IMG/VR virus record: IMGVR_UViG_3300021255_002891
Location: 1-64,000 of that record
Length of the DNA stretch: 64,000 nt
Source of the DNA: a virus
Taxonomy: Duplodnaviria; Caudoviricetes
Reading direction: 5' to 3' (one strand)
Shown: positions 1,723-60,211 of the stretch, in pieces
Layout: every line of letters begins with the position of its first letter
Position numbering within the stretch: position 1 is the stretch's first letter
Translations under genes and position numbers: made by a program
The notes under the pieces: model-generated
Databases searched by the model: none
Seen by the model: only the letters and a program-made list of their open reading frames with translations
Told to the model about the DNA's origin: nothing

Positions 1723-2598
1723 TTATCTTTTTCTCATTAAACTATTTCTTCTTTGGTCATATGTCATACCATATCTGTCATTAACCTCATAAGCCTCCAT
1801 TTCGCCCTTATTAGAATAATAATTATCGTTCTCAATTTCATCAAAAGTTGGATAATTATCTAATCTATTTTTAGCATCTTTAATATAGTCATCTATACTT
1901 TCTCCACTTTGAACCCATAATGCAATATCCACAAACAATTTCCTTTCCATAGAATCTTTATTGTATGATTTTGCTATATTATAGATTTCTCTCCACTCAA
2001 GACCATCAACTCTTTTTGCCAATTCAATACTAGCCTTTAAACCGTCTATGACATTATTATATACCAATATATTTGGAACTGGTGCTCCAGAATTCCAATT
2101 TTCATACCTTTGTATTAAATGCTGTATTTCATGTTGAATCGTTAAATCACATTCTTTTTTTAAAAATTCTAATGGCAAATCTGACTTACTTTCCCACCAT
2201 AATAAAGATGGAGGTATTTGTATTCCTTGACCATTAGAACTTGCAAAATTGCTGTCATTATCATACTTTATCTTTACTGTAGCTTGTTTCAAACTTGGAT
2301 ACCATCTATACAAATCATCATCATCCCATAAATCAGATAAAACTCTTATGCTAGAAATGGGAACTTGCTTTACCGTTCCATCAACGCCTTCATATTTCCA
2401 ATTGCCATCATACCCTATCTCCCATCCAGTAGTTTGTTTTATTTTAAGAGGATTTTCGTTTTTCTCCATCATTGTTTTGGCATTTTGCAATGCCAACATT
2501 TCTATAGATTCACTCCCTAAATTAGCAAGACCACGCTCACCTCTAAATGATTCCGTAAATAACTTTTTGAATTTACTTTCTGTAAGTATAATAACCAT
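1723..2598 (-). CDS. LPD23-like domain plus zincin-like metallopeptidase, with [ILV]xE leader (probable internal head protein)
   Basis: AKTMMEK...IKQTTGWEIGYDGNWKYE matches the LPD23 pattern. HEIQH is an HExxH motif, with a downstream GEMEA Glu. The N-terminus is MVIILTESKFKKLFTES. Confidence 0.7.
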   Translation of the reverse strand: MVIILTESKFKKLFTESFRGERGLANLGSESIEMLALQNAKTMMEKNENPLKIKQTTGWEIGYDGNWKYEGVDGTVKQVPISSIRVLSDLWDDDDLYRWYPSLKQATVKIKYDNDSNFASSNGQGIQIPPSLLWWESKSDLPLEFLKKECDLTIQHEIQHLIQRYENWNSGAPVPNILVYNNVIDGLKASIELAKRVDGLEWREIYNIAKSYNKDSMERKLFVDIALWVQSGESIDDYIKDAKNRLDNYPTFDEIENDNYYSNKGEMEAYEVNDRYGMTYDQRRNSLMRKR

Positions 2599-2635
2599 AT
2601 AAAATAAATTTTATATAAATAGTCAAATAAAAATA

Positions 2636-2670
2636 AAAAAAAGTGCCACTATCTTCACAGACAATGACAC
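2636..2670 (-). terminator. Rho-independent terminator with GNRA loop
   Basis: Minus strand GTGTCATTGTCT-GTGA-AGATAGTGGCAC-TTTTTT (12-bp stem including G-U pairs). Confidence 0.75.
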
Positions 2671-2701
2671 CATACTATGAAAAAAACAATTCATCGATTT
2701 T

Positions 2702-2905
2702 TCAATCCCAACCCCATATTTCATGCGACATTGGAAACCTCATGGCCATGCGTTTCAACGACTCGTCAATAAACCATCTTTTCTTGCGGAAAAACCACTT
2801 GAACTTATTGTGTTTACCGCCCATTACATGAGCCACCCACCTCCTACTATGAGGTGTTTTATTCCAAAACCTTTTAGGAGTTTTATACTTTTTACCCTTA
2901 GACAT
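2702..2905 (-). CDS. small basic hypothetical protein (67 aa)
   Basis: MSKGKKYKTPKRFWNK...EIWGWD. Start moved to the ATG at 2905 because the tracked ORF extension runs through the tRNA-Gln. Confidence 0.6.
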   Translation of the reverse strand: MSKGKKYKTPKRFWNKTPHSRRWVAHVMGGKHNKFKWFFRKKRWFIDESLKRMAMRFPMSHEIWGWD

Positions 2906-2920
2906 AGTAAACAAATTTAG

Positions 2921-2991
2921 TTGGACATAGAGGAATCGAACCTCTACCCTGACAGCCAAAATGTCATGTGCGACCATCACACTGATGTCCA
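2921..2991 (-). tRNA. tRNA-Gln(UUG), non-canonical core, CCA not encoded
   Basis: TGGACAT/ATGTCCA acceptor stem, GTGT/GCAC D stem, TGACA-TTTTGGC-TGTCA anticodon arm, AGAGG-TTCGATT-CCTCT T arm. Confidence 0.92.
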
Positions 2992-3006
2992 ATGATTACC
3001 AAATTA

Positions 3007-3744
3007 TTACGTGTCAATTAAACCATATTTTATTAAATAATTCTTAATGGTTGTTCTTGAAACGTTTTTTTCTTTTGCCATATTAGTAAATGTAGCATGT
3101 CTGCTCATTAATTCCTCTAATTCATCTTTTGTAAAAGATATGCTATTATGGGCTTTTTCTGAACATTCACTAGAACAATATTTCCTATTTTTCTTTCCGT
3201 GAAATTCTTTCCCACAATACAAACAAATATGTTTTGATTTATCAATTGTTTCGTATTCTGGTTTTTTCTTTCTTACTTCTGTTCTTTTTTTATAAGAATC
3301 AGTTTGGGAATGACAGTTAGGGCATAATATTTGCAAATTTTCTAATGAGTTGTTATAATGATTACCATCTATATGGTGAAGTTCTAGAGTTAAATGTTTG
3401 CCTTGCCAAGTTTCGTCACACCCACATATTTCACATCTTCTTTCTTTATATCCTAATTTAAAGAGTTTATCTTTTAAATTTGGTGTTCTTATTCCAAGTT
3501 CGTTAGAAAATACTTTTTCTATTGGTATAACACTAACCCTAGGGTCATTTGTTTCTGTTTTACCTTTATTCCATAATTGTCCAGTAAAATGTGTTGTATC
3601 TAAATCATATTTAACGATATACTTTTTTAAAGTATGAAAATTAGACCCAACATCAACCAAACCAATTTTTCTTAGCACTTCAGCATAACTAAATGATTCT
3701 TTAACAACTTTTTCTAAATTTTCTTTTTTATAATACTCTTTCAT
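3007..3744 (-). CDS. free-standing HNH endonuclease
   Basis: CEIC...LELHHIDGNHYNNSLENLQILCPNCHSQT, followed by a second zinc ribbon (CLYC...YCSSEC) and a C-terminal HTH-like segment. Confidence 0.9.
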   Translation of the reverse strand: MKEYYKKENLEKVVKESFSYAEVLRKIGLVDVGSNFHTLKKYIVKYDLDTTHFTGQLWNKGKTETNDPRVSVIPIEKVFSNELGIRTPNLKDKLFKLGYKERRCEICGCDETWQGKHLTLELHHIDGNHYNNSLENLQILCPNCHSQTDSYKKRTEVRKKKPEYETIDKSKHICLYCGKEFHGKKNRKYCSSECSEKAHNSISFTKDELEELMSRHATFTNMAKEKNVSRTTIKNYLIKYGLIDT

Positions 3745-3818
3745 ATATTTATCCTTTTATAAATAAATATAATTTAAGTATTAAAAATCAACAGTTGCGT
3801 CTACCTTTTTTCACAAAG

Positions 3819-3911
3819 TGAGCGAGAGGGGAATCGAACCCCCATAGGACTTATTTGTATGCCCATTGGTTTTTAAGACCAACTTGTCTAACCAAATTGC
3901 AACACTCGCCC
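3819..3911 (-). tRNA. tRNA-Leu(UAA)
   Basis: GGGCGAG/CTCGCTC acceptor stem, TTGGT-CTTAAAA-ACCAA anticodon arm, long variable arm, GGGGG-TTCGATT-CCCCT T arm, A73. Confidence 0.9.
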
Positions 3912-3928
3912 ATATATTATCATTTTTG

Positions 3929-4014
3929 TACCTTCGGTGGGAGTCGAACCCACAATGTCCTTTCGGAACACTACATCCTTAGTGTAGCCTCTATACCAAT
4001 TCGAGTACGAAGGC
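3929..4014 (-). tRNA. tRNA-Leu(AAG), A34 anticodon
   Basis: GCCTTCG/CGAAGGT acceptor stem, CTC/GAG D stem, CTACA-CTAAGGA-TGTAG anticodon arm, long variable arm with GAAA loop, GTGGG-TTCGACT-CCCAC T arm, A73. Confidence 0.92.
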
Positions 4015-4023
4015 ATATTTTTG

Positions 4024-4111
4024 TAGCTCTGATTGGATTCGAACCAACACAAGGATTACTCCTTCCTCATTTTGAGTGAGGTGCGTCTCAACCAAATTGC
4101 GCCACAGAGCC
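4024..4111 (-). tRNA. tRNA-Leu(CAA)
   Basis: GGCTCTG/CAGAGCT acceptor stem, CCTCA-CTCAAAA-TGAGG anticodon arm, AAGGA-GTAA-TCCTT variable arm, GTTGG-TTCGAAT-CCAAT T arm, A73. Confidence 0.92.
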
Positions 4112-4155
4112 ATACAAAATTTGCACCGCAAACCATTCCCTTATGATTCACGATG

Positions 4156-4187
4156 CAAATATATGAAAAATTTTTCAATTAACCAAA
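4156..4187 (-). promoter_or_regulatory. Bacteroidota sigma-A promoter driving the tRNA-Leu cluster
   Basis: Minus strand TTTG (4184-4187), 20 nt, TATATTTG (4156-4163). Confidence 0.8.
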
Positions 4188-4201
4188 CAATTTAGAAGTT
4201 T

Positions 4202-4336
4202 TTAACGAATAATTCTCTTTTCGCTTCTTCTTGACCTTCCACTTTCATTCAGAGGTCTGCTTGGATTTGGATTAGCTGAAACTACCTTGTTTGCTGTTGT
4301 AGTATTAGCCTTGTTTTTCTGACAACCACATGCCAT
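4202..4336 (-). CDS. 44-aa basic microprotein with N-terminal CxC (MACGCQK...)
   Basis: Manual translation MACGCQKNKANTTTANKVVSANPNPSRPLNESGRSRRSEKRIIR. Confidence 0.65.
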   Translation of the reverse strand: MACGCQKNKANTTTANKVVSANPNPSRPLNESGRSRRSEKRIIR

Positions 4337-4383
4337 AATTCAATATATTTTAATAACGTTATTTTTTTTTGCATCGAGTCATA

Positions 4384-4482
4384 TTATGCCAATCCTTGCA
4401 AGAGTCCTTGGAGTACCCTTGCATAGCTACGTTGTAACAATAAGTTACGAATTTCTGACTCAATTGCTATAATTTTATTCAT
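4384..4482 (-). CDS. possible 32-aa microprotein
   Basis: MNKIIAIESEIRNLLLQRSYARVLQGLLQGLA, 20 nt downstream of TATTTATA (4503-4510); the region could instead be non-coding. Confidence 0.35.
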   Translation of the reverse strand: MNKIIAIESEIRNLLLQRSYARVLQGLLQGLA

Positions 4483-4530
4483 TGTTTAAATACTTTTGCT
4501 ATTATAAATATAATGAACTTCGAAAAACAA

Positions 4531-5156: not shown

Positions 5157-5163
5157 AACAGTG

Positions 5164-5195
5164 CAAATATATAGATTTTAAATGAAAAATCCAAA
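5164..5195 (-). promoter_or_regulatory. Bacteroidota sigma-A promoter
   Basis: Minus strand TTTG (5192-5195), 20 nt, TATATTTG (5164-5171). Confidence 0.8.
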
Positions 5196-13045: not shown

Positions 13046-13858
13046 TTAATCCATTAACTTTCTAGCCTTTTTCACCATATCGGCAAATTCGTTATTCTCT
13101 TGCACTCTAAAGTTAGATGTGGATATGTGAGATTCAGCACTCTTGTAACCCCAAAGCTGCTTGATTCTTTCCTTCTGTTCGTTGACCAACTTCATGTTGA
13201 CCTTCTTAGTTACTTTTGGCTCTTTGGAATTCCACTCAACCAAATACTGGTTGTCTGAACTGTCTCTCATAATAAATTTGTTTCCTTCAGTTTTATATTC
13301 ATCAGGTATCTTTGACATCATATGACCTTCAGAAATAAATTGCGTGTTCTTGAAAGATAACATTTTTATTTTCTTTGACTCATACATTGTTTTATCATTT
13401 TTTTCTATGTCAGTTTTATTTAATTCACGACCAGTTAGACCTATTTCACTTGCGACATCCTTGCCCTTCTTTGCCAATTCAGCATGTTCTTTAGCCGCAT
13501 TGTAAAACTCACCCTTCTTGTCAAAGGTTGCGTTGCCAAACTCATCGTCCTTGTGTTTGTCTTCTGCATCTTTTGATGCATAACCCTTCATTTGGGACTT
13601 TGTTCTGTCCATGAATGGTTTGCTGATGCTATCATATCTTAGGTCATGCATACCTAAGTTGTCAGTATGAATTTTAGTGTCACCTTTCTTGCTTGAAAGT
13701 CCACCGTCATATTTTTCGGTCTCCTTCTTGATGTCACTGTAGGCTTTCCTGTTAATTTCTGCGGATTCTTTATCGCCAAACTGGACTGGTTTAAATTCAT
13801 TTTTAGCCTCTTCGTTTAGAATCCTTCTTAACTCCCCAACTGAAATTTTAGTTACCAT
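13046..13858 (-). CDS. probable internal head/core protein with [ILV]xE leader
   Basis: N-terminus MVTKISVGELRRILNEEAK; charged composition; further xxE sites (FISE, LVNE). Confidence 0.6.
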   Translation of the reverse strand: MVTKISVGELRRILNEEAKNEFKPVQFGDKESAEINRKAYSDIKKETEKYDGGLSSKKGDTKIHTDNLGMHDLRYDSISKPFMDRTKSQMKGYASKDAEDKHKDDEFGNATFDKKGEFYNAAKEHAELAKKGKDVASEIGLTGRELNKTDIEKNDKTMYESKKIKMLSFKNTQFISEGHMMSKIPDEYKTEGNKFIMRDSSDNQYLVEWNSKEPKVTKKVNMKLVNEQKERIKQLWGYKSAESHISTSNFRVQENNEFADMVKKARKLMD

Positions 13859-13865: not shown

Positions 13866-14015
13866 TTATTTAAATTGATTTATGTATAATCCTCTTAACA
13901 TCTGTTCAAACATAAGCCTTGTTCTTTCTTTGCCATTAACACCGTCCTCATGCAACTTATCATCAATTTCACGAACACGCTTAACGGCTTCTTCGTTCAT
14001 TTCGTAGTCTATCAT
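13866..14015 (-). CDS. 49-aa hypothetical protein
   Basis: Manual translation MIDYEMNEEAVKRVREIDDKLHEDGVNGKERTRLMFEQMLRGLYINQFK; ATGA overlap with the upstream stop. Confidence 0.7.
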   Translation of the reverse strand: MIDYEMNEEAVKRVREIDDKLHEDGVNGKERTRLMFEQMLRGLYINQFK

Positions 14016-14761
14016 AACTTTCTAATGTCACTAGGAACTAAATAATACGCCCCATTATCATAAACAAAAGTAACGCTTGAATCAATGTCTCCGACTTTTC
14101 CACCACATTTGTCTATTAAACCTTTATTGGCTTTTAAAAACTTTTCCACTGGTATCTTCATATCATACTTTGGATAGTTTCGTATTTTAGCACTAATTTC
14201 TGGCGTGATGTTACGATATTTAGCGTTATTCCTTAGTAAATCATAAATAAGTGATGAGGTGTTTTCATCATCATATGTGATGTTATATTTTTGTGAATAA
14301 GGATGATTCACTACTTCTTTACCATTTATATAAGGATTTTCAGTATATTGATAATTTTGAGCATTAGCATTGTTACCTCCAAACATCATCATTGTGCCCA
14401 ATGCCCCAGCTCTTAAAGCATTACCAAATTTGCCTTCATTTACCTTACTTTCAACTGATTCTCCAACTCTTTCTTTAGGTATTGAAATTGACCCACCTTT
14501 ACCATTTTTTCTTTCCATCGCTGGAGTCATATCAACTTCTGACATTTTGCTTGACTTATTTCCCTTTGGACTATAACCCTTTCTTCTTTGTACAGCACCA
14601 AATGGGACATCAAAAGCGCCAACACGGTCACCAGAAGCACTTGTAGCGCCAGGAGTAGCGGCATCGCCACCCATAGCGCCATCTTCTTTCAATATTCTAA
14701 ATACAGATTCTCTTACGATGTTATGCAAATCACTTTCTGTAAGTCTTATGATTTTTTTCAT
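14012..14761 (-). CDS. probable internal head protein with RLTESDLH leader
   Basis: MKKIIRLTESDLHNIVRESVFRILKED leader; internal signal-peptide-like segment. Confidence 0.65.
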   Translation of the reverse strand: MKKIIRLTESDLHNIVRESVFRILKEDGAMGGDAATPGATSASGDRVGAFDVPFGAVQRRKGYSPKGNKSSKMSEVDMTPAMERKNGKGGSISIPKERVGESVESKVNEGKFGNALRAGALGTMMMFGGNNANAQNYQYTENPYINGKEVVNHPYSQKYNITYDDENTSSLIYDLLRNNAKYRNITPEISAKIRNYPKYDMKIPVEKFLKANKGLIDKCGGKVGDIDSSVTFVYDNGAYYLVPSDIRKL

Positions 14762-15008: not shown

Positions 15009-15482
15009 CTACATTAAATCATTATATAGTTTTCTTATTTTATCCTTGAAATTTTCCTTGTGAACCTTATATGACACATAATATTTGGAAACTTTCTTGC
15101 CAGTAGTTTCATCAAATGGTTCATCAATGTTTTCCTTCTTGGTTATTACGTTATAGTCATATAGCTTTTTTCTAAGCTCCCCATTGTGAATACCAAGGTC
15201 AATCAAAACGTCACTAGGTTTTGTCTTTATTGGGTCGTTCAGCAAGCCCTTTATAAATTTTACAACTTCTTCATAGAAAGTCAAAAATGGAATCTTCTTC
15301 TTCCCATCATCTTCGGCAGTGTCTTCGTCAGAATTTTCTTTTGAGTCGGTTTTCTTGGCGTTGCCTACAATTTTTCCAATTTCTTTGTTAAGCTTCTCCA
15401 ACTCATCTTCCAAATCATCAATACTGTCCGAAATACTTAAAAGGTCATTGAACTTTGATTCGTTTATATGTATTAACTTCAT
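15009..15482 (-). CDS. probable internal head protein with [ILV]xE leader
   Basis: MKLIHINESKFNDLL N-terminus. Confidence 0.55.
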   Translation of the reverse strand: MKLIHINESKFNDLLSISDSIDDLEDELEKLNKEIGKIVGNAKKTDSKENSDEDTAEDDGKKKIPFLTFYEEVVKFIKGLLNDPIKTKPSDVLIDLGIHNGELRKKLYDYNVITKKENIDEPFDETTGKKVSKYYVSYKVHKENFKDKIRKLYNDLM

Positions 15483-15688
15483 CTAGTCACTCCCCCTTTC
15501 CATGTACTGCTGCGATTCCAAAGAGTCCTATACAAATCTTCAATTACTTCGGCTGTTATTTCCTTCACAGCCTTTTTGAAATCCCTTGAGTTATAGGCAG
15601 AACTTAAACGGTTGGATACAATTGATTCAACCTCTGTCTTTGACAACTCTTCGTTTATTATTTCTTTTATTCTATTATCTGAAATCAT
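15479..15688 (-). CDS. small protein with [ILV]xE leader
   Basis: MISDNRIKEIINEELSK; TATTTATA 18 nt upstream. Confidence 0.6.
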   Translation of the reverse strand: MISDNRIKEIINEELSKTEVESIVSNRLSSAYNSRDFKKAVKEITAEVIEDLYRTLWNRSSTWKGGVTR

Positions 15689-15706: not shown

Positions 15707-15714
15707 TATAAATA
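15707..15714 (-). promoter_or_regulatory. candidate phage late promoter TATTTATA (one of about 9 copies)
   Basis: Other copies: exact at 334-341, 2614-2621, 3758-3765, 4503-4510, 26165-26172 and 30521-30528; single-mismatch at 16778-16785 and 58747-58754. Each lies 13-21 nt upstream of an ATG on the coding strand. Confidence 0.6.
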
Positions 15715-15725
15715 TAACAAACAAC

Positions 15726-15754
15726 AAAAAAGGATGCCATTTCTAGCACCCTTT
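15726..15754 (-). terminator. Rho-independent terminator
   Basis: Minus strand AAAGGGTGC-TAGAAATG-GCATCCTTT-TTT. Confidence 0.65.
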
Positions 15755-15800
15755 CTTTAATATTTAAACTCCTATTGTCTAAATTCTTTTTTTTTTGCCA

Positions 15801-16376
15801 TTAGTCCTTACTTTCTGCGGCTTTCTTTAGTTTTTCCATCAAATCACCATCTTGAGTGATTGAATCTTTCCAATTGCTAAATGCATCCCTAATTTTTCCT
15901 AGAGTCCTAGCATTGGTTTCAGTTAGCTGCATTGCCTCTGTCCATATATAGCATCCATCACCACTAGGGTCGTTATACCTGAACTGGAACTTCAAGTTTA
16001 AAGTATTAATCTTACCATTTAAAGTCATATCATCAGACTTTGGATAATACTTTAAGGCATCACTCTCCAACGTAATATTCTCACCTACTGTCTTCCTTAA
16101 TGCTTCTTCTTGGGATGTCCTGACATCACCGAACTGTGGAGTGTCTTTCCTTACCACAAATGATTCCTTGTGGGTTTCGTCAACTGTCTCCTCCTCTGTC
16201 AAGATTTTTTTTTTATTATTCTCAACAGCCTCTTGCATTAAAATCTTAGACCTTGTAATGAAATTATCATTTTCCTTTGATTCCATCACAAATTCTTGTG
16301 CTGCCTTTTTTGCTTGATTAACCCTACCTTCTCTAAGTTTTTCAAGCATTTGTTTGGTTACGCTCATTTCTGTCAT
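15801..16376 (-). CDS. hypothetical protein, possibly virion-associated
   Basis: Tracked 15801..16400; the likelier start is MTEMSV at 16376, which avoids the overlap. Contains LMQE and ILTEEE sites. Confidence 0.7.
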   Translation of the reverse strand: MTEMSVTKQMLEKLREGRVNQAKKAAQEFVMESKENDNFITRSKILMQEAVENNKKKILTEEETVDETHKESFVVRKDTPQFGDVRTSQEEALRKTVGENITLESDALKYYPKSDDMTLNGKINTLNLKFQFRYNDPSGDGCYIWTEAMQLTETNARTLGKIRDAFSNWKDSITQDGDLMEKLKKAAESKD

Positions 16377-22486: not shown

Positions 22487-24001
22487 TCATAACAATCTCA
22501 TTTTTAAAGAATCCTTTACAATATTTCTGCGTCTTTCTCTGATTTTATCTATAACTTTACTTTTTGTTTTTGTATTTTCGTTACTAACATTAGGCTTAAT
22601 GTTATTGTTTGGCGTAGTAGAATTAATTCTACGAGAATGTGCGCCATTCCATAAGAAAAACTCAGATTTACATATTGTTTTACTCATATATGTTACTTTA
22701 ACATCTTGATTTTTCCATAAAACATAATTAAATGACAACTGGTCTCTATGTGACCCATTCTTTAGTTCTTCAAACCAATCCTCCATTAACTTAATGCAAT
22801 CAGCCTCATTGTGTTTTCTTAAAAGAATATTGCTTTGTAACAAACCATATTTCTTAGGAAACCCTTCATTTTTATATTTTTCGATTTGTGGGTTTACATT
22901 TTCAGCATTATCCTTTTTCATTCTTATAACAATAGTGGCCTCATCGTATATGCAATCTCTACTTGGATGCTTGGGAACATATATCGAACAATCTGACTTA
23001 ATATTTTGGTCAATAAACTTGTTTAAATCTCCTTTAATAGAAACACAGCCATCAACCCATATTGATAAATCATATTCACTAAGAACTTTGTGAGGGTTTA
23101 TTTTAACATATCTTTGTTTTTTTACTTGAGATAAACCTTCAACTTCTTTTGGTAATGGTTTAATAATCCACACATTACTTTTAAAATTAGTATTGTCTGT
23201 AAAACAAATATAATCAAATCCATCACTTATATAAGTAGGTTCTCTTAAAAAGTCGTAATCTCCAGTTATGCAAGTATAAATTACTTTTTTGTTTTTCTCA
23301 TTTGACCATAATTTTTTATTCAAAGAAAGCCATTCTTTATCAGTAACTTTCATTTTTTCACCAATTTTATTCCATGAACCGTGTCCATAATGCACTACAT
23401 AATCATTAAAATTTATTTCTTCGTGTTTGTATTTTAAAGATTGAATGTAAAATGCGCCACCAGTATCATATCTATCTGCAACTCCATTTTTCCATAACCC
23501 ATGCATATAGTTGTCATCAAAATAGTGTACTCCTTTTTCCTTACACATTTTCACATTGATGTAACATATGAATGGTAATACTCTCTTTATGGAAGATTTT
23601 GGTTGAGTTATGACATTACCAATATACATAAGGTCATCCCTGTATAAATTGGATATATCTCTCTTTAATAATACATCAGAATCCAATAAAACAAAATTTT
23701 CTTTAATAAGTTCCATACATTTTTCTACACTGTAGCAATGCTTGGCACTTCCCCAAAGATTTGCTTTTCCAGGAGACTTCATCCTATTTGGATATTTCTC
23801 TAACCACTTATCAAAATCAATTATCTGGCCTTTTGTATTATCAAAAACAGTAACATTGTCAAAGTGCGCAATAAATGGATTCTTATCACTATTGTCAAAT
23901 ATATATATTACTGCATCTTTGACAAACAAATTAATACTCCTCACCAAGCACTCAGTAAGGTAAGGAGTATTGTAGTGTATTATTAGGATATTTTTTTTCA
24001 T
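22487..24001 (-). CDS. bifunctional glycosyltransferase: GT-A/GT2-like domain fused to DUF616 domain
   Basis: N-terminal IIHYNTP...IFDNSD...LLDSDV (DxD); C-terminal KVIYTCITGDYD, DYICFTD, SIWVDG, HPSRDCIYDE, RDQLSFNYVLWK. Confidence 0.85.
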   Translation of the reverse strand: MKKNILIIHYNTPYLTECLVRSINLFVKDAVIYIFDNSDKNPFIAHFDNVTVFDNTKGQIIDFDKWLEKYPNRMKSPGKANLWGSAKHCYSVEKCMELIKENFVLLDSDVLLKRDISNLYRDDLMYIGNVITQPKSSIKRVLPFICYINVKMCKEKGVHYFDDNYMHGLWKNGVADRYDTGGAFYIQSLKYKHEEINFNDYVVHYGHGSWNKIGEKMKVTDKEWLSLNKKLWSNEKNKKVIYTCITGDYDFLREPTYISDGFDYICFTDNTNFKSNVWIIKPLPKEVEGLSQVKKQRYVKINPHKVLSEYDLSIWVDGCVSIKGDLNKFIDQNIKSDCSIYVPKHPSRDCIYDEATIVIRMKKDNAENVNPQIEKYKNEGFPKKYGLLQSNILLRKHNEADCIKLMEDWFEELKNGSHRDQLSFNYVLWKNQDVKVTYMSKTICKSEFFLWNGAHSRRINSTTPNNNIKPNVSNENTKTKSKVIDKIRERRRNIVKDSLKMRLL

Positions 24002-24013
24002 AATATTAACCTT

Positions 24014-24139
24014 TTATTGAAACGCCATTTGTATCTTTTTTATAATCCAAAGAGGGATAACACAAATCCAAGATAAACTAATCATTACTTTTTCCCACAT
24101 AGGGTGTTTCCATTTGCTTACAATAAACTTATAAGTCAT
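24014..24139 (-). CDS. 41-aa membrane microprotein
   Basis: Manual translation MTYKFIVSKWKHPMWEKVMISLSWICVIPLWIIKKIQMAFQ. Confidence 0.55.
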   Translation of the reverse strand: MTYKFIVSKWKHPMWEKVMISLSWICVIPLWIIKKIQMAFQ

Positions 24140-24209
24140 AAATGAAATAATTAAATATAATAAAATAATAATACCGATTAACATGTTCATTTAATTTTTA
24201 TTTTTGTTA

Positions 24210-25487
24210 TTAACTATTTGCCCAATTACTATTATCGTCTGGGTCTATACCTTGTCTTAAAAGATGCTTTTTAGTAACAATTTTATATTGTTTAGGGTCT
24301 AAATCATAATCAATCAAATCTACAATAAAATAATCCTTTTTAAATTGTCTTAACTCTTCTGGGTCATATCCCTCATAATCCCATCCGTTAACTATCTTAT
24401 TGGTTGACTTATTTACTGCAAAATGAGAATAATTTTGATTATTCCTAAAACTTTCAGTCATAATTTTTCTAACTGCATTTTTTACTATTGCATGTAAATC
24501 AGACTCAGTAAGTCTAACTAATTTTTTATTGTTTCTATTTACAGATTCACCGTATATATCATAATATTTTTGTCTATCTACATGGGTAATTGGATAATTT
24601 TCATTATCTCCATCTAACGGATTAAAATTTTTATCATATTTTTTATTAGCAAGCTTTAGGAATACATTAGGATTAATAGGTATTGAATTACTTCCACTTC
24701 CTATATGGTCTGTGAGCCTATCATTAATGGCAAACTTCTTAACTCCGTCAATTGTGCAACTAACCCATAGTATTCTTTCATACATTAGTTTTAAAACACT
24801 AAAGTTCAAGTTTTTAAGGTCTTGAATATATTTTTTGATTTCGTTTTCTTGTACACCAAGTTCTCTTAATGCCTTAACGCCATCTGGGTCACTCTTTGAT
24901 ACAAGACTAGCAACGGCATTTTTATTAAGCCCGCCATAAAGTTTACCATCTTTAACCATAAAATATGAAGTGTCATACTTGTCCGTTGTAGCACCATTTT
25001 GGTGGGTATATAATCTTCCCATAGTATTATCAGTTGCGCCTACAGAAACATTTCCACTTCCAAAATTTTGTTTTTTGTCATATTTCTCATCACGAGTACC
25101 TAGTTCAGCTCCATAAGGTTTCAATAAATTGTTTACACTATCTTTGTATTTTCCATAAGCCTTTCCATAGTTGTCTTCGGTCTGCCAATGAAAAGTAATG
25201 ACTGAACGCTTTATGATACCAACTGGTAACTTATTTTTCCTATCAGCACCACCTTGATGAAATTTTTTCAACACATCATAGCCTCTAGTACTCTTTCTTT
25301 GGTACTGTTCAATATCGTTACCAAATTTATCAATATCAATGTTCTTTCCAGTCAAAGTTTTGCCTATATTTGCTGAACTTATGTAACACAAAGTTAAATA
25401 AGTGCCACCTTTTGCAGTAGACAAAGCATCAATTATACTGTTAAAACTTACCCTTTGTCTTCTCTCTTTTCCACCTTCTCCTATCAT
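24210..25487 (-). CDS. two-domain protein with internal RLTESDLH linker
   Basis: 425-aa ORF; KKLVRLTESDLHAIVKNAVRKIMTES precedes a discrete ~80-aa C-terminal domain. Confidence 0.75.
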   Translation of the reverse strand: MIGEGGKERRQRVSFNSIIDALSTAKGGTYLTLCYISSANIGKTLTGKNIDIDKFGNDIEQYQRKSTRGYDVLKKFHQGGADRKNKLPVGIIKRSVITFHWQTEDNYGKAYGKYKDSVNNLLKPYGAELGTRDEKYDKKQNFGSGNVSVGATDNTMGRLYTHQNGATTDKYDTSYFMVKDGKLYGGLNKNAVASLVSKSDPDGVKALRELGVQENEIKKYIQDLKNLNFSVLKLMYERILWVSCTIDGVKKFAINDRLTDHIGSGSNSIPINPNVFLKLANKKYDKNFNPLDGDNENYPITHVDRQKYYDIYGESVNRNNKKLVRLTESDLHAIVKNAVRKIMTESFRNNQNYSHFAVNKSTNKIVNGWDYEGYDPEELRQFKKDYFIVDLIDYDLDPKQYKIVTKKHLLRQGIDPDDNSNWANS

Positions 25488-25785: not shown

Positions 25786-26145
25786 TTATGTACCTACTTT
25801 CCTAATTTTTCCGTCTCTATTATAGTAGAATATTTCACCATTATCCAAAATGATATTAGGCCATCTTTTTGTATAGCCATTATAATTAGCTTGCATTGCC
25901 CTCACCCACATTCCACCATCTAAAACTTTTTTTTCTAATGGTGATAAACGGTCTTGGTTATCATATAGGTCTTGCATTTCTTTTTCAGAATAGATGTGCT
26001 TTTGTGGCTTTTTATCTACAAGTTCATTCGGCTTTTTACTTTTCTTGCCAAAAAGCCATCCTTCATTAGCCAATATTCTATGTACGGATTCCTTCACAAT
26101 ACTATGCAAATCACTTTCCGTAAGTCTTATAATCTTTTTTGACAT
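25786..26145 (-). CDS. probable internal head protein with RLTESDLH leader
   Basis: MSKKIIRLTESDLHSIVKESVHRILANE; TATTTATA 19 nt upstream. Confidence 0.7.
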   Translation of the reverse strand: MSKKIIRLTESDLHSIVKESVHRILANEGWLFGKKSKKPNELVDKKPQKHIYSEKEMQDLYDNQDRLSPLEKKVLDGGMWVRAMQANYNGYTKRWPNIILDNGEIFYYNRDGKIRKVGT

Positions 26146-26182
26146 AATAAAAAAAGTAATTTATTATAAATATCTTTTAACA

Positions 26183-26214
26183 TTTGTTTTTCTCATTTTT
26201 TTAACATATCTTTG
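26183..26214 (+). promoter_or_regulatory. Bacteroidota sigma-A promoter for primase
   Basis: TTTG (26183-26186), 20 nt, TATCTTTG (26207-26214), ATG at 26219. Confidence 0.85.
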
Positions 26215-26218
26215 CAAT

Positions 26219-27256
26219 ATGAAACAAGAACTTGAAAAGTTATACAACATATTAACAGTTTTCCTAGGAGAGGCAAAGAATGGGTTTGATGAAAACACCT
26301 ACCAATACCAATTCCCTTGCCCTAAGTGCATTGATAGGGATGGTATTATGGAAGCTAGGAAATACAACCTAGAGGTCAACATTCAGAAGCAAGTCTTCCA
26401 ATGTTGGAAATGCTCATCAATGGAAGATGACATGAAAGGTTCTATCACGAAACTAATCAGAATGTACGGAAATGAAAAGCTTCTTTCAGAATACAAGGAA
26501 ATCATACGTTCAATTAGGGAAAGCGAATTGTACAAGCTCCATTTCAGTGATAGTGACTTCAATATAGACACTTCCATAATAGAAAAGGAAGACTTGAAAT
26601 TTCCACCAAGCTTCAAACTGTTCAAAAAAGACGGCAAAAACAACTATGGTGCATTGAAATACCTTCAAAACAGAGGAATCGATTGGAACATCATAGAACA
26701 ATACAAAATAGGCTTTACCGAAAGGGAAGAAGATGATAAGATGAGAAAGTATTCATATAGGGTCATTATACCGTCATATAACGCCCTAGGAGAGCTTAAT
26801 TATTGGGTGGGTAGGGATTACCTACCTACGTCAGATAAATTCGCTCTGAGGACAAAATATGCGAATCCTCAAGTAAAGAAAACTGAAATCATATTCAATG
26901 AAGAGAAGATTAATTGGGATGCCGACATCACATTGGTTGAAGGTGCTTTCGACCATATTGTAGTTCCAAATTCAATTGCGTTGTTGGGTAAGGCACTAGA
27001 CAAGGATTATAAGTTATATTGGGAATTAATTACTAAAGCTAATGCAAACGTGAATATATTTTTAGATAATGATATTAAAGATAATGGAAAAGAAATATAT
27101 GCATTATTAAATCATGGTAGACTATATAATAAAATCAGATATATATATTCAGATTTAGGGAAAGACCCAAGTGAAATTTATCAAGAATATGGCTACAAGG
27201 GAATAATCAAATGCTTACGAAATGCTAAACAAATTGAAGAGGTTTATTTACAATAA
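26219..27256 (+). CDS. DNA primase (zinc finger plus TOPRIM)
   Basis: CPKC...CWKC zinc finger, RVIIP, LVEGAFD and FLDND TOPRIM motifs. Start moved from 25994 to the ATG at 26219. Confidence 0.9.
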   Translation: MKQELEKLYNILTVFLGEAKNGFDENTYQYQFPCPKCIDRDGIMEARKYNLEVNIQKQVFQCWKCSSMEDDMKGSITKLIRMYGNEKLLSEYKEIIRSIRESELYKLHFSDSDFNIDTSIIEKEDLKFPPSFKLFKKDGKNNYGALKYLQNRGIDWNIIEQYKIGFTEREEDDKMRKYSYRVIIPSYNALGELNYWVGRDYLPTSDKFALRTKYANPQVKKTEIIFNEEKINWDADITLVEGAFDHIVVPNSIALLGKALDKDYKLYWELITKANANVNIFLDNDIKDNGKEIYALLNHGRLYNKIRYIYSDLGKDPSEIYQEYGYKGIIKCLRNAKQIEEVYLQ

Positions 27257-56330: not shown

Positions 56331-58340
56331 TTAAACTAATCTACATTGAACTTGAATATCGTTCTTAGGATTTCTTATCTCATACATCGAGTTATAATCA
56401 CCATACAATACCTTATCTATTGCCATAAGGTCTATTTCTGCTGACATTGATGCGTTATCTTTAAGTATAAATGGTGTAGAACTCACTACCTCACACGTTC
56501 CCTCTGTTACTTCTGGAAGAGGGCATTTATCGCTGCTGTAACCTCCGAACCATATCTTATATACTCTTAGACTAATTAAGCTGACAACACCATCAAGCAA
56601 TGTTATTTCCTTTTCCAAGTCACCAACAAATATGTCATCACCCATATCGTGTTTATTAACATCAAAATATGCTGCCACTTTATTAATGATTGTTTCTATA
56701 ACGTTACCTGCATTATAGTTTTTGTCTATAAACACATCAATTGATATTCCAATATTATAGATGAGCCCACTTTTTATTTCAATATAATCATTAATTTGTT
56801 TATAATGAGACAAATACTCTATAACGTTTCTAACTAGCCTATCTGGTAAAGCTGAATCCAATTTTCCGCTAGCGTTAAGACCCAAGAAATCCATTTCTAC
56901 CTTATTATTGGTCTCAATGGCACAAGAACGGAAAGGAGCACCATATTTAGGAGGCATCTGCATCAGTTTTACTTTATAATCTTTAACTGTAACAGCACGA
57001 TTCTGTGCGGCAGTATTATACCTCATTAAGTGTTTTATCTCTTCTTCAGATGGCATATCCTTACCAGCGACAGCAGTTGATAGGTTTGTAACTTTCAAAG
57101 AAGAAATAACTCTACCACCCATATTTCCATTCCATCCTTGTAGTTCAGTGCTTCCGCCCCACTCTATGTTTGCAAGAGAAATGGTGTTAATTGAACCAGG
57201 ACCTAAATTACTTGATATGCCGCCACCAACACGATAAAGGATAAACATACTCCATCCAGCTTTAGGCAATATACCTAACATATTATTGTTAATTAAATTA
57301 GAAGCAACGCTGTCTGAATAGCTTGTTGCACTCTCAGGCACTGAATCATACCCATTTCCTGCCCCAAAAATAATTTTTATATAACCATTATCAGTAAATT
57401 CAGTAATGTATTTTTGCGTTAATGGCTTCCATCTTCCAATGTAATATCTACTAGTTCTTTGAGTATCACCACTTTCTGTGAATTCTGTGTAATCTTCGTA
57501 GAGTTCAGGTTGATATTTGTCTTTTATAACAAAATTGTCTATGTTACTATCTGTACCAAATCTCCATTGGTCTGCCAAAGAATCACATTCAAAAAACCTA
57601 TATGTCATAACTGCTTGACTGCTTTTTCTATACTCCTCTTCGTCAACATAAAATTCCCACAACTCAGGCGCACTAGAAAAGTCACTAGACTCTTTAAAAA
57701 TGATTGATTCAACATTCATCACATCATTTTCTGGAAGTACAAATTCCATAAATGGTTTTAAATCGTCAGCATTAATAATTTTCTTATATATTTTTGATAT
57801 ACCATTAATGGCAACTACAGATTTTGACACAGTATAACTAGTTATATTACCATTGCTATCTCTAGATGGGGTAATGGTTCTATTTGAAAAACCATTGCTA
57901 TTAAACTGATTTTTAAAATTAACATCCTCGGTTAATTCAAAGTTAAAAGCCCCAGCAGAAACAATACTAGATTTAAGCAATATTGGAGCATAATTCCAAT
58001 CAGGAATGCTTATATTCGTTGAATTTAATGGTAATTCACAACTAATTTCCACCTCACACATTGATGCTTTACGTCCAGGAATCTTAAAACCATTAGCCCT
58101 AGCTTGATTAAAAATAGTGCTCCTTAAATTTGCACTATCAATATTTGTCTCTTGATACATTCTATCTGTATGGTAAGACAAATCATCACCTACTGCTGAT
58201 ACAAGGTCTATAAACCAAGCACCAACACTAGAATCGTTAAAACTATCAGAAAGTTCAGGATAATATCTATTGCTAAACTTTATAAGTTCTTCTTTAATGC
58301 TATTAAAATCTCTGCTTAAATAATTAATTTTCTTTTCCAT
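56331..58340 (-). CDS. baseplate wedge protein (T4 gp6 / baseplate J-like)
   Basis: INYLSRDFNSIKEELIKF, FIDLVSAVGDDLSYHTD, SANLRSTIFNQARANGFK, QNRAVTVKDY; adjacent to the gp25-like gene. Confidence 0.88.
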   Translation of the reverse strand: MEKKINYLSRDFNSIKEELIKFSNRYYPELSDSFNDSSVGAWFIDLVSAVGDDLSYHTDRMYQETNIDSANLRSTIFNQARANGFKIPGRKASMCEVEISCELPLNSTNISIPDWNYAPILLKSSIVSAGAFNFELTEDVNFKNQFNSNGFSNRTITPSRDSNGNITSYTVSKSVVAINGISKIYKKIINADDLKPFMEFVLPENDVMNVESIIFKESSDFSSAPELWEFYVDEEEYRKSSQAVMTYRFFECDSLADQWRFGTDSNIDNFVIKDKYQPELYEDYTEFTESGDTQRTSRYYIGRWKPLTQKYITEFTDNGYIKIIFGAGNGYDSVPESATSYSDSVASNLINNNMLGILPKAGWSMFILYRVGGGISSNLGPGSINTISLANIEWGGSTELQGWNGNMGGRVISSLKVTNLSTAVAGKDMPSEEEIKHLMRYNTAAQNRAVTVKDYKVKLMQMPPKYGAPFRSCAIETNNKVEMDFLGLNASGKLDSALPDRLVRNVIEYLSHYKQINDYIEIKSGLIYNIGISIDVFIDKNYNAGNVIETIINKVAAYFDVNKHDMGDDIFVGDLEKEITLLDGVVSLISLRVYKIWFGGYSSDKCPLPEVTEGTCEVVSSTPFILKDNASMSAEIDLMAIDKVLYGDYNSMYEIRNPKNDIQVQCRLV

Positions 58341-58729
58341 TATAATTGTACTGCTATGCTATCATTAGTTACTTTATTCCCTTCCACAACGCTATAATCC
58401 AATCTAATGAATACTTCAGATTCATCTTCTGCGTTTTTTACTACATGTATGTCTCGTAAAGATATATTAGTTGCCCATCTGTTAACTGAATCTCTTATTT
58501 CATTCTTAACAGATTCCCAAGTCATACCATCACTCTGCTCAAAAATATACTTAATTAAATCAGTTCCAAACTCTGGATTTCTTATTCTTTGCCCCTTTGG
58601 AGTAAAGACAATATGCATTAACTGACTTTTAACTTTATCCTTTAAAGTGTTGTTGGCATCAACAAAAAAATGTTGAAAGCCATCAGACGTAAAGGGATAT
58701 TTAATACCGAAATACTGTTTTTTTGCCAT
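58340..58729 (-). CDS. baseplate wedge subunit (T4 gp25-like)
   Basis: FGIKYPF...VKSQLMHIVFTPKGQRIRNPEFGTDL. Confidence 0.92.
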   Translation of the reverse strand: MAKKQYFGIKYPFTSDGFQHFFVDANNTLKDKVKSQLMHIVFTPKGQRIRNPEFGTDLIKYIFEQSDGMTWESVKNEIRDSVNRWATNISLRDIHVVKNAEDESEVFIRLDYSVVEGNKVTNDSIAVQL

Positions 58730-58787
58730 TAGTTAAAATTATTTCTTATAAGTATCTAAAAAATAATAATTTTAATGATTTTATAAA

Positions 58788-58817
58788 TAAAAAAGGTGAC
58801 GATTACTCGCCACCTTT
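58788..58817 (-). terminator. Rho-independent terminator ending the nrd operon
   Basis: Minus strand AAAGGTGGCGA-GTAA-TCGTCACCTTT-TTT (GNRA loop). Confidence 0.75.
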
Positions 58818-59273
58818 CTTCTTCCAAAACAAAAAAGTATTGTCTTCCATTTCGTCATCTTTTATGACGTAAAACCTCTGATTTGTGGTTTCCTTATCCA
58901 AACCACCCAAGTCTTCTTTATACTCTCCAAGTTTAATAAAATCAAAGTTCTTCAAAGAAATGTCTTTGGATAACTCGTTTCTACCACTGTACCACCCTAC
59001 TTTTAACTTCTTAAAATGCTTTAAATAAAATGCATATCCATTGATATATTTGGGTTCTCTGTCACCACCCATAAAACAAACACACGTTATACCACTGTTT
59101 TTCTCAAGCAAACTGTTAAGTTCCTTTGCCGTTAATTCTGTTCCTTTATCTTCCCATAAAAACTGTGAATGACATCCCTTACAATGACAAGGGCAATTTG
59201 TAATGTTAATCGCTAAAGTAATTTCGTTAGGTATCTCTTCAAATACCACCATTGCATTATAATATTTTACCAT
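58803..59273 (-). CDS. nrdG: anaerobic ribonucleotide reductase activating protein (radical SAM)
   Basis: EIPNEITLAINITNCPCHCKGCHS (CxxxCxxC), CVCFMGG, GGL...TTNQRFY; same operon as nrdD. Confidence 0.93.
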   Translation of the reverse strand: MVKYYNAMVVFEEIPNEITLAINITNCPCHCKGCHSQFLWEDKGTELTAKELNSLLEKNSGITCVCFMGGDREPKYINGYAFYLKHFKKLKVGWYSGRNELSKDISLKNFDFIKLGEYKEDLGGLDKETTNQRFYVIKDDEMEDNTFLFWKKKGGE

Positions 59274-59277
59274 AAAT

Positions 59278-59511
59278 TTACCTTTTTGTTATGTAATCCC
59301 AATTTGAATCTTTTACATACAACCCACATTCACATTTATTTTTCATTGTGTAGTCAGTGCAAGGGCAGTGCAAATCTTTACCCTCATAGTCCTCAGAATT
59401 ATGCACACAAGGGCATAAACCATCGTTCTTCTCACACCTCTTGAGTATTGCATTGACAATTTTGTCATTTGGGTTTAAAACCCACCCATCTTTACGCAAT
59501 ATTGAAATCAT
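59278..59511 (-). CDS. ferredoxin:thioredoxin reductase catalytic-subunit-like protein
   Basis: LNPNDKIV..I......GLCPC-x13-CPC-x8-CECGLY. Confidence 0.85.
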   Translation of the reverse strand: MISILRKDGWVLNPNDKIVNAILKRCEKNDGLCPCVHNSEDYEGKDLHCPCTDYTMKNKCECGLYVKDSNWDYITKR

Positions 59512-59515
59512 CTTC

Positions 59516-60211
59516 TTAAATCTTTAGTTTCATTATGTAATCAAAACTCACCTTCTCGCACTTTATGACATTAATGACATTCTCATCTATTATTACCACA
59601 TTCTTCTCACCGCTCAAGTCTCTCTTTGAAAGCTTTCTTGTGTTCATGTCATATATAATTCCGTTGTACCCTTTTGACAACAGCAATTCATTCATTTGGT
59701 CATCCGAAAAGCCGTTAGTCTTTTGTATTCTGATATACTCATCCCTGCTGATATAATTAGGGTTCTGTATTTCAACGGTATAAATGTATGCATACCTTCT
59801 AACGGAATCTATTTCTTTTAAGAAATTAACCCATTCTTCCCTATTTCCGACACCATCGTTTATAAACTTGTTTACAAGCCTCTTAACAGACACTGTGTAG
59901 TTGTTGTTAAGATATGACGTTAAAATGCCGTTAGGGTCATCATATGAGTGTACACATGCGTTGTATTTATCCATTAGGGTTTCAGTATGTGACAATTCAT
60001 CAGCATAAAACATTGCCGTTTCCTTATCAGTTGTAAAATAGAGACCCTTTCCGAAATCTTGCGAATGCTGTCCAGTGTTTATTTTGGACATCAAGAACTT
60101 GTCAAATTTGTGTGGAGAACCATGATACAACAGTGTAGGGAGCATGTTTTTACTCTCTAGTGCCTCTTCGATTACTTTTTTTATTATATTATTAATTCTT
60201 TTATTTATCAT
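59516..60211 (-). CDS. ADP-ribosyltransferase-like protein (ART-PolyVal-like) with [ILV]xE leader
   Basis: LYHGS..FDKF......G....FGKGLYFT, YIYTVEI, KGYNGIIY; leader MINKRINNIIKKVIEEALES. ATG at 60211 (the track uses GTG at 60220). Confidence 0.75.
   Translation of the reverse strand: MINKRINNIIKKVIEEALESKNMLPTLLYHGSPHKFDKFLMSKINTGQHSQDFGKGLYFTTDKETAMFYADELSHTETLMDKYNACVHSYDDPNGILTSYLNNNYTVSVKRLVNKFINDGVGNREEWVNFLKEIDSVRRYAYIYTVEIQNPNYISRDEYIRIQKTNGFSDDQMNELLLSKGYNGIIYDMNTRKLSKRDLSGEKNVVIIDENVINVIKCEKVSFDYIMKLKI

Follow-up and report, generated by a model that had tools for sequence, protein, structure and literature searches.

What is the function of a short peptide that recurs, almost unchanged, in otherwise unrelated proteins of a single phage? 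The question is raised by the stretch of 64,000 nucleotides analysed here (the window), which belongs to an 83.5-kb virus record estimated to be 38% complete. The earlier note on this DNA described three near-identical copies of such a leader, and all three were recovered: two are N-terminal, in the genes at 14012-14761 and 25786-26145, and one is internal, in the gene at 24210-25487. The leader is a peptide of 26-27 residues, KK[IL][IV]RLTESDLHxIVKESVxRILKE, and its carriers in the window are as follows.

14012-14761, minus strand: gene for P0001 (249 aa), canonical leader at residues 1-27 (nt 14681-14761; profile E 1e-19)
25786-26145, minus strand: gene for P0002 (119 aa), canonical leader at residues 2-28 (nt 26062-26142)
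24210-25487, minus strand: gene for P0003 (425 aa), internal leader at residues 320-346 (nt 24450-24530)

A profile of the motif gave exactly four matches in the 83.5-kb record (E 1e-18 to 1e-19), and beyond these none at E<1. The fourth copy forms the N-terminus of the product of genome 82484-82996 (minus strand), 19 kb past the window, and three of the four copies in the record are N-terminal. The P0001 payload is basic (pI 9.3) and has no Pfam or PHROG match; 122-aa orthologues of the P0002 payload occur in metagenomes, and the AlphaFold model of P0002, poor overall (pLDDT 44), places residues 10-27 in a helix. Within the leader, KKIIRLT forms a short extended segment and ESDLHxIVKESVxRILKE, which comes after it, an amphipathic helix. 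The leader genes of the window sit among DNA-metabolism genes (sigma factor, Rad50-like, methylase and primase-like).

The likeness of the copies extends to the DNA, as the earlier note had remarked, with 58-77% nucleotide identity, although this is merely what a shared peptide entails. The leaders of P0001 and P0019 share 22 of 26 residues, and 15 of these 22 are encoded by different codons. Across the leader copies all synonymous codons are in use, with Ser and Leu each drawn from both of their codon families, while residues R6, L7, T8, E9, L12 and V20 are 97%-99% conserved and E26 is 95% conserved. Since synonymous codons vary freely, selection acts on the peptide, and the peptide itself is, on this codon evidence, its target. 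Three hydrophobic-x-Glu motifs lie within the leader: LTE at 7-9, [VI]xE at 16-18 and [LIVM]xE at 24-26, with L7-T8-E9 99% conserved, L24 84%, V16 77% and E18 67%, so that the motif L/I-x-E is present. The invariant polar residues are R6, T8, E9, S10, D11, H13 and S19.

The profile scan of this genome and its relatives that the earlier note had proposed was run, and beside the four copies here it returned thousands of clusters in which recognisable payload domains were nearly absent. The leader matches 4963 clusters at 50% identity with E<=1e-3 (801 with E<=1e-10) and occurs in at least 268 IMG/VR stretches. Between 8 and 17 copies (8-17) were counted in each relative of 171-412 kb, the complete ones being 280-412 kb in size. 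The window phage belongs to this family, as its baseplate wedge protein is 51%-72% identical to the proteins of the relatives. Among 149 top representatives, the copy is N-terminal in 122 and C-terminal in four, and some further copies are internal. Clustering the payloads of the N-terminal carriers in this set gave 87 groups, of which 71 have a single member, and the regions that follow the leader in different carriers are unrelated. The proposal of a portable leader on unrelated payloads stands as far as the N-terminal position and the diversity of payloads are concerned, whereas the effector domains expected of them are missing, Pfam domains being almost absent from leader-bearing payloads. 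Compared with background, payload pI showed no significant charge bias (p=0.12). Many proteins contain two leader copies, and internal leaders are preceded by a conserved N-E-S-K-N junction.

The leader is a strong unannotated family, without a Pfam or PHROG model. It has no match in Pfam, PHROG or PDB, where the best profile hit to PDB sequences (E=0.05) was a chance match to ClpV; no known family emerged for its carriers from Pfam or PHROG, and in the ESM Atlas its carriers fall into unnamed clusters only (at 0.85). A tblastn search of 50,697 phage records with the leader gave one weak match, to an uncultured 484-kb record, and none to a cultured phage; megablast of 14 kb of the window against cultured phages gave no match. 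A literature search for the letters of the motif retrieved irrelevant matches only and no paper on the motif.

The internal copy had led the earlier note to regard the 425-aa P0003 as a polyprotein. The AlphaFold model of P0003 is good (pLDDT 83.6) and divides the protein into an N-domain (~10-290), a disordered linker (315-323), the leader helix (328-345) and a small C-domain (355-420). Of 120 homologues, 109 retain the order of N-domain, leader and variable C-part, and this conserved internal leader, together with the modelled disordered linker before it, is compatible with a polyprotein. Foldseek of the model against PDB gave no fold match (E>=0.24), nor did a VIA-wide search give a convincing one (best Z 5.2 over 60 residues). 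The top BFVD match (E=8e-8) would make P0003 a PolyVal ART, and this assignment was rejected, the TM being 0.16, with no convincing fold.

No protease, capsid protein or portal was found in the 38%-complete record of the window, and because of this the argument from the head module rests on relatives. Each of the nine relatives with a completeness of 80% or more encodes a Peptidase_S77 (T4 gp21) protease. Their capsid protein is of the gp23 family, aligns with T4 gp23 from residue 1 and has a conserved ...GSFE/T opposite the T4 cut site ...GSFLTE65/A (slash, cut). The presumed cut site in the relatives' capsid protein is thus S-F-E, not L/I-x-E, and the P3 preference of the protease may therefore differ from that motif. 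Protease and capsid protein were not found in the 241.7-kb and 171-kb relatives of the window's own clade, both incomplete; a weak S77 match in this clade falls in a fibre-like ORF and was discarded.

The gene order in the relatives is TerL, portal, p765, p144, 1-4 leader genes, protease, scaffold-like protein and capsid protein; the T4 order is 20, 67, 68, 21, 22, 23. In at least five lineages leader genes thus occupy the gp67/gp68 slot beside the protease, as small genes between portal and prohead protease, and in five of six lineages they lie within 3 kb of the protease (Fisher combined p=1e-5), the slot-bearing lineages sharing this arrangement by descent and so not being independent observations. 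One slot gene, lead110, encodes an acidic tail (pI 4.05, D+E 30%), comparable to T4 gp67 (pI 4.05). The leader profile gave negative bit scores against T4 gp67 and gp68, which means no homology. Most leader copies are dispersed outside the head module.

Upstream DNA motifs common to many carriers are ATATTTAT and AATACGTAT...ATG. The former is found at -18 to -50 of the TerL, portal, protease, scaffold, capsid and sheath genes of the relatives, and it precedes 53% of N-terminal leader genes as against 18% of other ORFs at the same loci (odds ratio 5.2, p=1e-16). The following elements were located in the window.

26166-26173, minus strand: ATATTTAT promoter-like motif, 21 nt upstream of the start of 25786-26145
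15708-15715, minus strand: ATATTTAT promoter-like motif, heading the tight minus-strand gene run from 15688 to 13046
15726-15757, minus strand: terminator-like hairpin, directly upstream of the 15708-15715 motif

The gene run from 15688 to 13046 includes the leader gene 14012-14761, and the hairpin marks its putative boundary as a transcription unit.

We lean, with slightly better than even confidence, towards the view that the leader is a portable and removable head-targeting tag, a variant of the capsid-targeting principle of T4. The leader would dock the attached protein onto the assembling prohead core; a Glu-directed prohead protease of the T4 gp21 type would then cut it at one or more of the three hydrophobic-x-Glu motifs, and cleavage would free the payload inside the capsid. 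Leader carriers would be present in virions; their payloads may be injected effectors, may be inert accessories of core or scaffold that are degraded, or may stay in the head. This reading gains support from the T4-type head module of the relatives, the gp67/gp68 slot, the promoter-like motif of head genes and the three hydrophobic-x-Glu motifs. Counting against it are the position of the window leader genes amid DNA-metabolism genes, the internal or C-terminal location of some copies, the length of the leader relative to the T4 tag and its lack of homology to gp67 and gp68, the S-F-E cut site presumed for the capsid protein, payload pI that does not depart from background, and the frequency with which helices of any kind contain hydrophobic-x-Glu in so AT-rich a proteome. 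The idea of the earlier note, in which a transferable N-terminal tag serves to load the head and is cleaved at Glu, is partly supported, by its genomic context.

In T4, IPIII begins with a 10-residue capsid targeting sequence (CTS), gp21 cuts after L/I-x-E, and the T-even internal proteins are diverse save for their shared tag (PMC9026906, PMC3012670). The CTS of IPI-III and the Alt propeptides, which gp21 removes, are likewise short N-terminal peptides on otherwise unrelated proteins. The CTS and the leader both end in hydrophobic-x-Glu, the phages concerned (here, the relatives) encode a protease of the gp21 family and a capsid protein of the gp23 family, and in both cases the genes of the carriers are dispersed over the genome (PMC9026906, PMC3012670). 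The leader differs in being about 2.5 times as long (26-27 residues versus 10) and in its three hydrophobic-x-Glu motifs and long, highly conserved helix; it is found on 8-17 carriers per genome and on thousands of payload families, with some internal copies. Homology to T4 proteins is not detectable for gp67 and gp68, the proteins compared, the 10-residue CTS being too short for comparison. The slot carriers of the relatives nevertheless resemble gp67/gp68 in being small and in lying between portal and protease, the N-terminal helices of gp67/gp68 carry hydrophobic-x-Glu sites as the leader does, and gp67 and lead110 both have an acidic tail. Differently from T4, the huge phages have 1-4 slot genes and many carriers elsewhere, and sequence similarity is lacking.

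The propeptides of inner-body and ejection proteins in phiKZ, 201phi2-1 and SPN3US are cut after Glu by a diverged gp21-like protease (PMC9026906). These giant phages, which load many head proteins with Glu-directed processing and redundant cut sites, may offer a further parallel (PMC9026906). Their propeptides are, however, long and without a single conserved portable motif, the cleavage motif is S/A/G-x-E, and their capsid protein and head module are of a different lineage from those of the leader phages. In encapsulins, a short conserved cargo-loading peptide docks diverse cargo inside an HK97-fold shell. The docking principle is the one proposed here, although encapsulin peptides are usually C-terminal and uncleaved, serve bacterial nanocompartments rather than virions, and have no sequence relation to the leader.

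Several other explanations have to be weighed. The leader could be a helix for assembly of the prohead core or scaffold, its carriers being gp67/gp68-like core accessories that build and size the head and are then degraded, not injected. It would suit such accessories that the carriers with the best support are precisely the ones located at the gp67/gp68 position, that one of these has a gp67-like acidic tail, and that payloads lack enzyme or effector domains. A structural role, however, needs far less diversity than is seen, with 8-17 copies per genome, 149 representatives whose payloads form 87 clusters, and some 5000 clusters overall, and the copies are mostly dispersed beyond the head module, like the ip and alt genes of T4; we consider this explanation unlikely. 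Somewhat more doubtful in our judgement is a general docking or oligomerisation module for a hub other than the capsid (such as a chaperone, the transcription machinery, or an enzyme of host or phage), with proximity to head genes being incidental. The invariant polar residues (R6, T8, E9, S10, D11, H13, S19) do suggest a specific partner, internal and C-terminal copies exist, and the window genes lie amid DNA-metabolism genes with a sigma factor adjoining. An incidental association would nevertheless have to accommodate the slot beside the protease, conserved for leader genes in at least five lineages, the enrichment of leader genes for the promoter-like motif of structural genes, and the strong N-terminal bias of the copies.

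Arc/CopG-type repeats begin with a basic strand and an N-capped amphipathic helix, and the order of KKIIRLT and the helix that follows it resembles this start. The leader might accordingly be half of a ribbon-helix-helix unit (beta-strand and helix A) that pairs with another copy, for which the many proteins with two copies would be convenient, and its carriers would be DNA-binding or DNA-associated. Pfam scans revealed no ribbon-helix-helix family, helix B is absent, since the post-leader sequence is unrelated between carriers, and the profile search of PDB sequences gave nothing significant, which leaves this idea highly improbable. As for conservation of a nucleic-acid element (a translation-initiation region, a regulatory RNA or a recombination cassette), T4-type phages do have promoter-stem-loop cassettes, and a mobile 5' cassette would be one way to explain the upstream motifs that many carriers share (ATATTTAT; AATACGTAT...ATG). 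Against this, residues are 90%-99% conserved although synonymous sites are saturated, and internal copies that lack a start codon are conserved as well. An RNA fold search on the four genome copies gave no stable structure (z -0.4 to -0.9 for three copies, -2.05 for the internal one). With synonymous sites free and 15 of the 22 identical P0001/P0019 residues differently coded, a nucleic-acid element is essentially refuted.

A bolder version of the head-targeting reading, which we put forward tentatively as possible rather than probable, is that huge phages from gut and rumen, a large uncultured family, use the leader as a universal, transferable packaging signal. Each virion would contain 8-17 tagged proteins, drawn from about 5000 payload families and delivered into the host with the DNA, and internal leaders with their N-E-S-K-N would be polyprotein joints cut by the head protease, releasing two payloads. 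Were this so, sequence would suffice to tell which proteins these phages package. If the leader loads the head at all, the packaged, and perhaps injected, proteins of widespread uncultured phages of 200-410 kb could be listed without further information than sequence. The T4 capsid-targeting principle would then have been reinvented, or have diverged beyond recognition, at a far larger scale, thousands of "dark" payload families would become candidates for host take-over or counter-defence, and a defined 27-residue tag would be available with which to load such capsids with foreign proteins. The motif deserves a database model even should its carriers be core accessories only.

The earlier note had also seen looser versions of the leader in six further proteins (2598, 13858, 15482, 15688, 60211 and 15801-16376) and had named effector-like payloads for some of them. 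None of the six survived profile searches, scoring E>1 against both the narrow profile and a broad one derived from 354 leader copies. Nor can a generic [ILV]-x-E criterion tell leaders from other sequence in so AT-rich a genome: 20-residue windows contain [IL]xE in 28% of cases at N-termini and in 20% in the interior. In a test confined to N-termini, 13046-13858 (p=0.0015) and 1723-2598 (p=0.0024) ranked just behind the true copies, which at a false-discovery rate of about 0.1 is suggestive only of their being leader carriers. As for 1723-2598, conservation of its N-terminus is confined to its LPD23 orthologues, and no other payload shows it. The two proteins with named payloads are the following.

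59516-60211, minus strand: ART-like protein, leader test p=0.018 among 89 N-termini, no significant leader
1723-2598, minus strand: LPD23 and HExxH-type protein P0004, leader profile E 8.7, no significant leader

Neither the LPD23/peptidase nor the ART-like protein thus has a significant leader, and their description as tagged effectors is not supported. The ART assignment of 59516-60211 is itself borderline, DUF3990 scoring above its cut-off (32.6 versus 32.2 bits) and ART-PolyVal below (30.8 versus 31.2). The presence of LPD23 in 1723-2598 was confirmed by Pfam (36.4 bits versus a cut-off of 27). A TATTTAT motif is located at -23 of this gene.

Translation bears out the three near-identical copies of the leader, a peptide of 26-27 residues, that the earlier note had read from the DNA. 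A leader profile run against six frames of the whole record returned four matches (E 1e-18 to 1e-19) and no further copy below E=1:

14012-14761 (-), 249-aa protein, leader at the N-terminus
25786-26145 (-), 119-aa protein, leader at the N-terminus
24210-25487 (-), 425-aa protein, leader internal
82484-82996 (genome coordinates, outside the window), 170-aa protein, leader at the N-terminus; the fourth copy, found with the profile

Six looser leaders had also been claimed (2598, 13858, 15482, 15688, 60211 and 15801-16376), none of which was recovered even by a broad profile built from 354 copies out of many phages. Residues K, I, E, N and L abound in the proteome, and [IL]xE occurs in 28% of its N-terminal versus 20% of its interior 20-residue windows. 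In a position-restricted test of 89 N-termini, 13046-13858 (p=0.0015) and 1723-2598 (p=0.0024) ranked next after the true copies; their leader-like sequences are suggestive only, and the N-terminus of 1723-2598 is confined to its own LPD23 orthologues. The LPD23/peptidase and ART-like proteins, which would fit the picture of effectors, are without a significant leader. The core observation is confirmed and its looser part rejected, and the interpretation as a capsid tag is partly supported: context from relatives (a T4-type head module, a leader-gene slot between portal and prohead protease, a promoter-like motif) speaks for it, the named effector payloads and looser leaders do not.

Scanning the genome and its relatives with the leader profile, a route proposed for cataloguing payload domains, yielded many carriers and almost no Pfam domains among the 149 top representatives. 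Searched against 1.84 billion representatives, the profile matched 4,963 clusters at E<=1e-3 and 801 at E<=1e-10. At least 268 confirmed leader stretches are present in IMG/VR, many on records of 280-412 kb, and ten relatives (171-412 kb, 53-100% complete) carry 8-17 copies per genome, mostly on ORFs of 80-300 aa. The leader is N-terminal in 122 of the 149 top representatives and exclusively internal in 27; 70/149 have at least two copies and 4/149 a C-terminal one. With the leader masked, the payloads of these 149 formed 87 clusters (71 singletons). The leader is unannotated in databases: it matched no Pfam or PHROG family, no PDB sequence and no named ESM Atlas cluster, tblastn against phage records found no cultured phage with it, and no paper on it was found in the literature. 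One 661-aa protein of a relative (L100:804-2789(+)) has two internal leader-like copies, and its N-terminus matches a 'starvation-inducible transcriptional regulator' PHROG (phrog_858, E=2e-5).

The baseplate wedge protein of this phage is 51-72% identical to those of the large relatives, and the phage is in the same family. A Peptidase_S77 protease, of the T4 gp21 family, is encoded by 9/9 relatives that are >=80% complete. Their gene order is large terminase, portal, 765-aa protein, 144-aa protein, one to four leader genes, protease, scaffold-like protein of 480-520 aa and T4 gp23-family capsid protein; set against the T4 order 20 (portal), 67 and 68 (prohead core proteins), 21 (protease), 22 (scaffold) and 23 (capsid), this puts the leader genes in the gp67/gp68 slot. 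One slot leader protein (~110 aa) shares with gp67 a strongly acidic tail (pI 4.05); the leader has no sequence homology to gp67 or gp68. In 5/6 lineages no more than 3 kb separates leader genes from the protease (combined p=1e-5); the arrangement being inherited, this shows conservation of the slot and not repeated independent events. The relatives' capsid proteins align with gp23 from the first residue, and opposite the T4 maturation site ...GSFLTE65/A (slash at the cut) stands ...NSGSFE/T in all five lineages, so Glu-directed capsid maturation has very likely been kept, although the residue two before Glu is Ser in the relatives and Leu or Ile in the T4-type motif.

Several peculiarities of these head modules were also seen. 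The relatives' capsid proteins (L082:12142-14175 and orthologues, 650-678 aa) have a large insertion relative to gp23 after a conserved ...PVGKLFF.... Two 410-kb phages, and not the others, have an HNH homing-endonuclease gene between slot leader gene and prohead protease (L082:8708-9679(-), L083:9097-10110(+)). In a 349-kb relative the ORF that holds the protease domain encodes 607 aa (L086:5810-7633(+)), over double the normal size, and a leader gene lies 30 nt downstream of it; in another relative a 241-aa protein with a weak leader-profile match (L088:6723-7448(+), E=0.0012) adjoins the protease.

In the relatives, ATATTTAT begins 18-50 nt ahead of the start codon of the genes for terminase, portal, protease, scaffold, capsid and sheath. 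The motif stands ahead of 66/125 N-terminal leader genes versus 206/1,167 other ORFs of the same loci (odds ratio 5.2, p=1e-16), and we infer from this gene content that it is a putative late, structural-gene promoter. For this genome, TATTTATA has separately been proposed as the virion-gene promoter class. On the present record ATATTTAT precedes few genes, among them:

26166-26173, ATATTTAT ahead of the leader gene 25786-26145
15708-15715, ATATTTAT ahead of 15479-15688
position -23, variant TATTTAT ahead of 1723-2598

Among the annotated DNA-metabolism genes of the record, none but one HNH gene has it. Immediately upstream of the motif at 15708-15715 is a terminator-like hairpin, and the motif stands at the head of a series of closely spaced genes that extends to 13046 and includes leader gene 14012-14761. 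MNKK-type leader genes of relatives (e.g., L074, L054, L023) share, besides ATATTTAT, a DNA motif in the 30 nt before the ATG. It has AATACGTAT as its palindromic core, lies 10-20 nt before the start codon and may be a regulator-binding site.

The constraint on the leader is on the peptide, not the DNA. Leader copies within the genome share 58-77% DNA identity, and the leaders of 14012-14761 and of another carrier (P0019) agree at 22/26 residues with different codons at 15 of those 22. Among 111 distinct leader copies of related phages, R6, L7, T8, E9, L12 and V20 (numbered along the leader) are conserved at 97-99%, E26 at 95%, and D11, H13, I15 and S19 at 90-93%, with all synonymous codons in use, both serine and both leucine families included. 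Synonymous choice is thus free, and no stable RNA fold was found at the leader copies, which together argue that selection acts on the peptide; a nucleic-acid element is essentially excluded by the codon data. That the leader docks its carriers to a hub which has nothing to do with the capsid is improbable; that it is half of a ribbon-helix-helix unit is far more so.

In T4, a tag made of the first ten residues of IPIII is enough to direct proteins to the prohead core, where gp21 cleaves behind L/I-x-E; except for the shared tag, the T-even internal proteins are diverse (PMC9026906, PMC3012670). The present leader is N-terminal too, with a basic, hydrophobic start, and differs in being a longer form of the same logic. 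It holds three hydrophobic-x-Glu motifs (LTE 7-9, [VI]xE 16-18 and [LIVM]xE 24-26), the first being the tripeptide of the T4 capsid-protein cut site, and the invariant polar residues of its amphipathic helix suggest that it has a specific partner. Because it follows the logic of the T4 tag, we lean towards a leader that would bring its carrier protein to the head and would be cut by a gp21-type protease. That the carriers are structural core accessories only is rather unlikely, and we rank it next, ahead of the unrelated hub. Injected effectors are one possible role for the payloads, which have no recognisable domains. The system is a candidate, from sequence, for the T4 capsid-targeting principle in a new variant in uncultured huge phages.

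Internal copies follow a conserved junction (consensus N-E-S-K-N-(M/I/T)), with E-[S/N] no more than eight residues upstream in 32/54 of them versus 17% of background windows (p=6e-12). The Glu and Ser codons differ between copies, which makes the junction, too, a feature of the peptide. In the 425-aa protein the order N-domain, leader, variable C-part is kept in 109/120 homologues, and one relative has the C-domain behind a decayed leader and an N-terminal part of another kind. Its AlphaFold model (pLDDT 83.6) has a confident N-domain, a disordered linker (315-323), a leader helix (328-345) and a small C-domain; the N-domain matched no solved fold, and the best viral match had a low TM-score. 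The gene of this internal-leader protein and the glycosyltransferase-like gene that comes after it form a conserved pair, present at 22487-25487(-) of the window and in L097 of a 412-kb relative.

The window (GC content 30-35%) covers positions 1 to 64,000 of an IMG/VR virus record that is 83.5 kb long and was rated 38% complete; no head genes were found on the record. It encodes a baseplate wedge protein, anaerobic ribonucleotide reductase, DnaB-type helicase, sigma-70-type factor, Rad50-like protein, C5 methylase, and glycosyltransferase-like and primase-like proteins; an exonuclease, methylases, an HNH nuclease and a UvsX-like recombinase lie in the last 19.5 kb, beyond the window. Two gene groups stand out:

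2920-4111 (-), four tRNA genes in a row: Gln(UUG), Leu(UAA), Leu(AAG), Leu(CAA)
34256-56091 (-), five consecutive very large ORFs (1363, 1051, 1172, 1077 and 2303 aa), no PHROG match at E<=1e-5

An A34 Leu(AAG) tRNA is unusual in bacteria and their phages. The five ORFs may encode tail or fibre proteins; the minus-strand wedge gene 56331-58340 lies immediately upstream of them. In the helicase ORF 62630-63991(-), DnaB family matches are confined to residues 194-434 and residues 25-198 match 'terminase large subunit' PHROGs, a pattern that suggests an insertion, for instance an intein. A plus-strand ORF (25994-27256, 420 aa) overlaps the opposite-strand leader gene 25786-26145; since its sole family hint, a primase core at residues 216-247, is far downstream of the start, its true start is probably after 26170.
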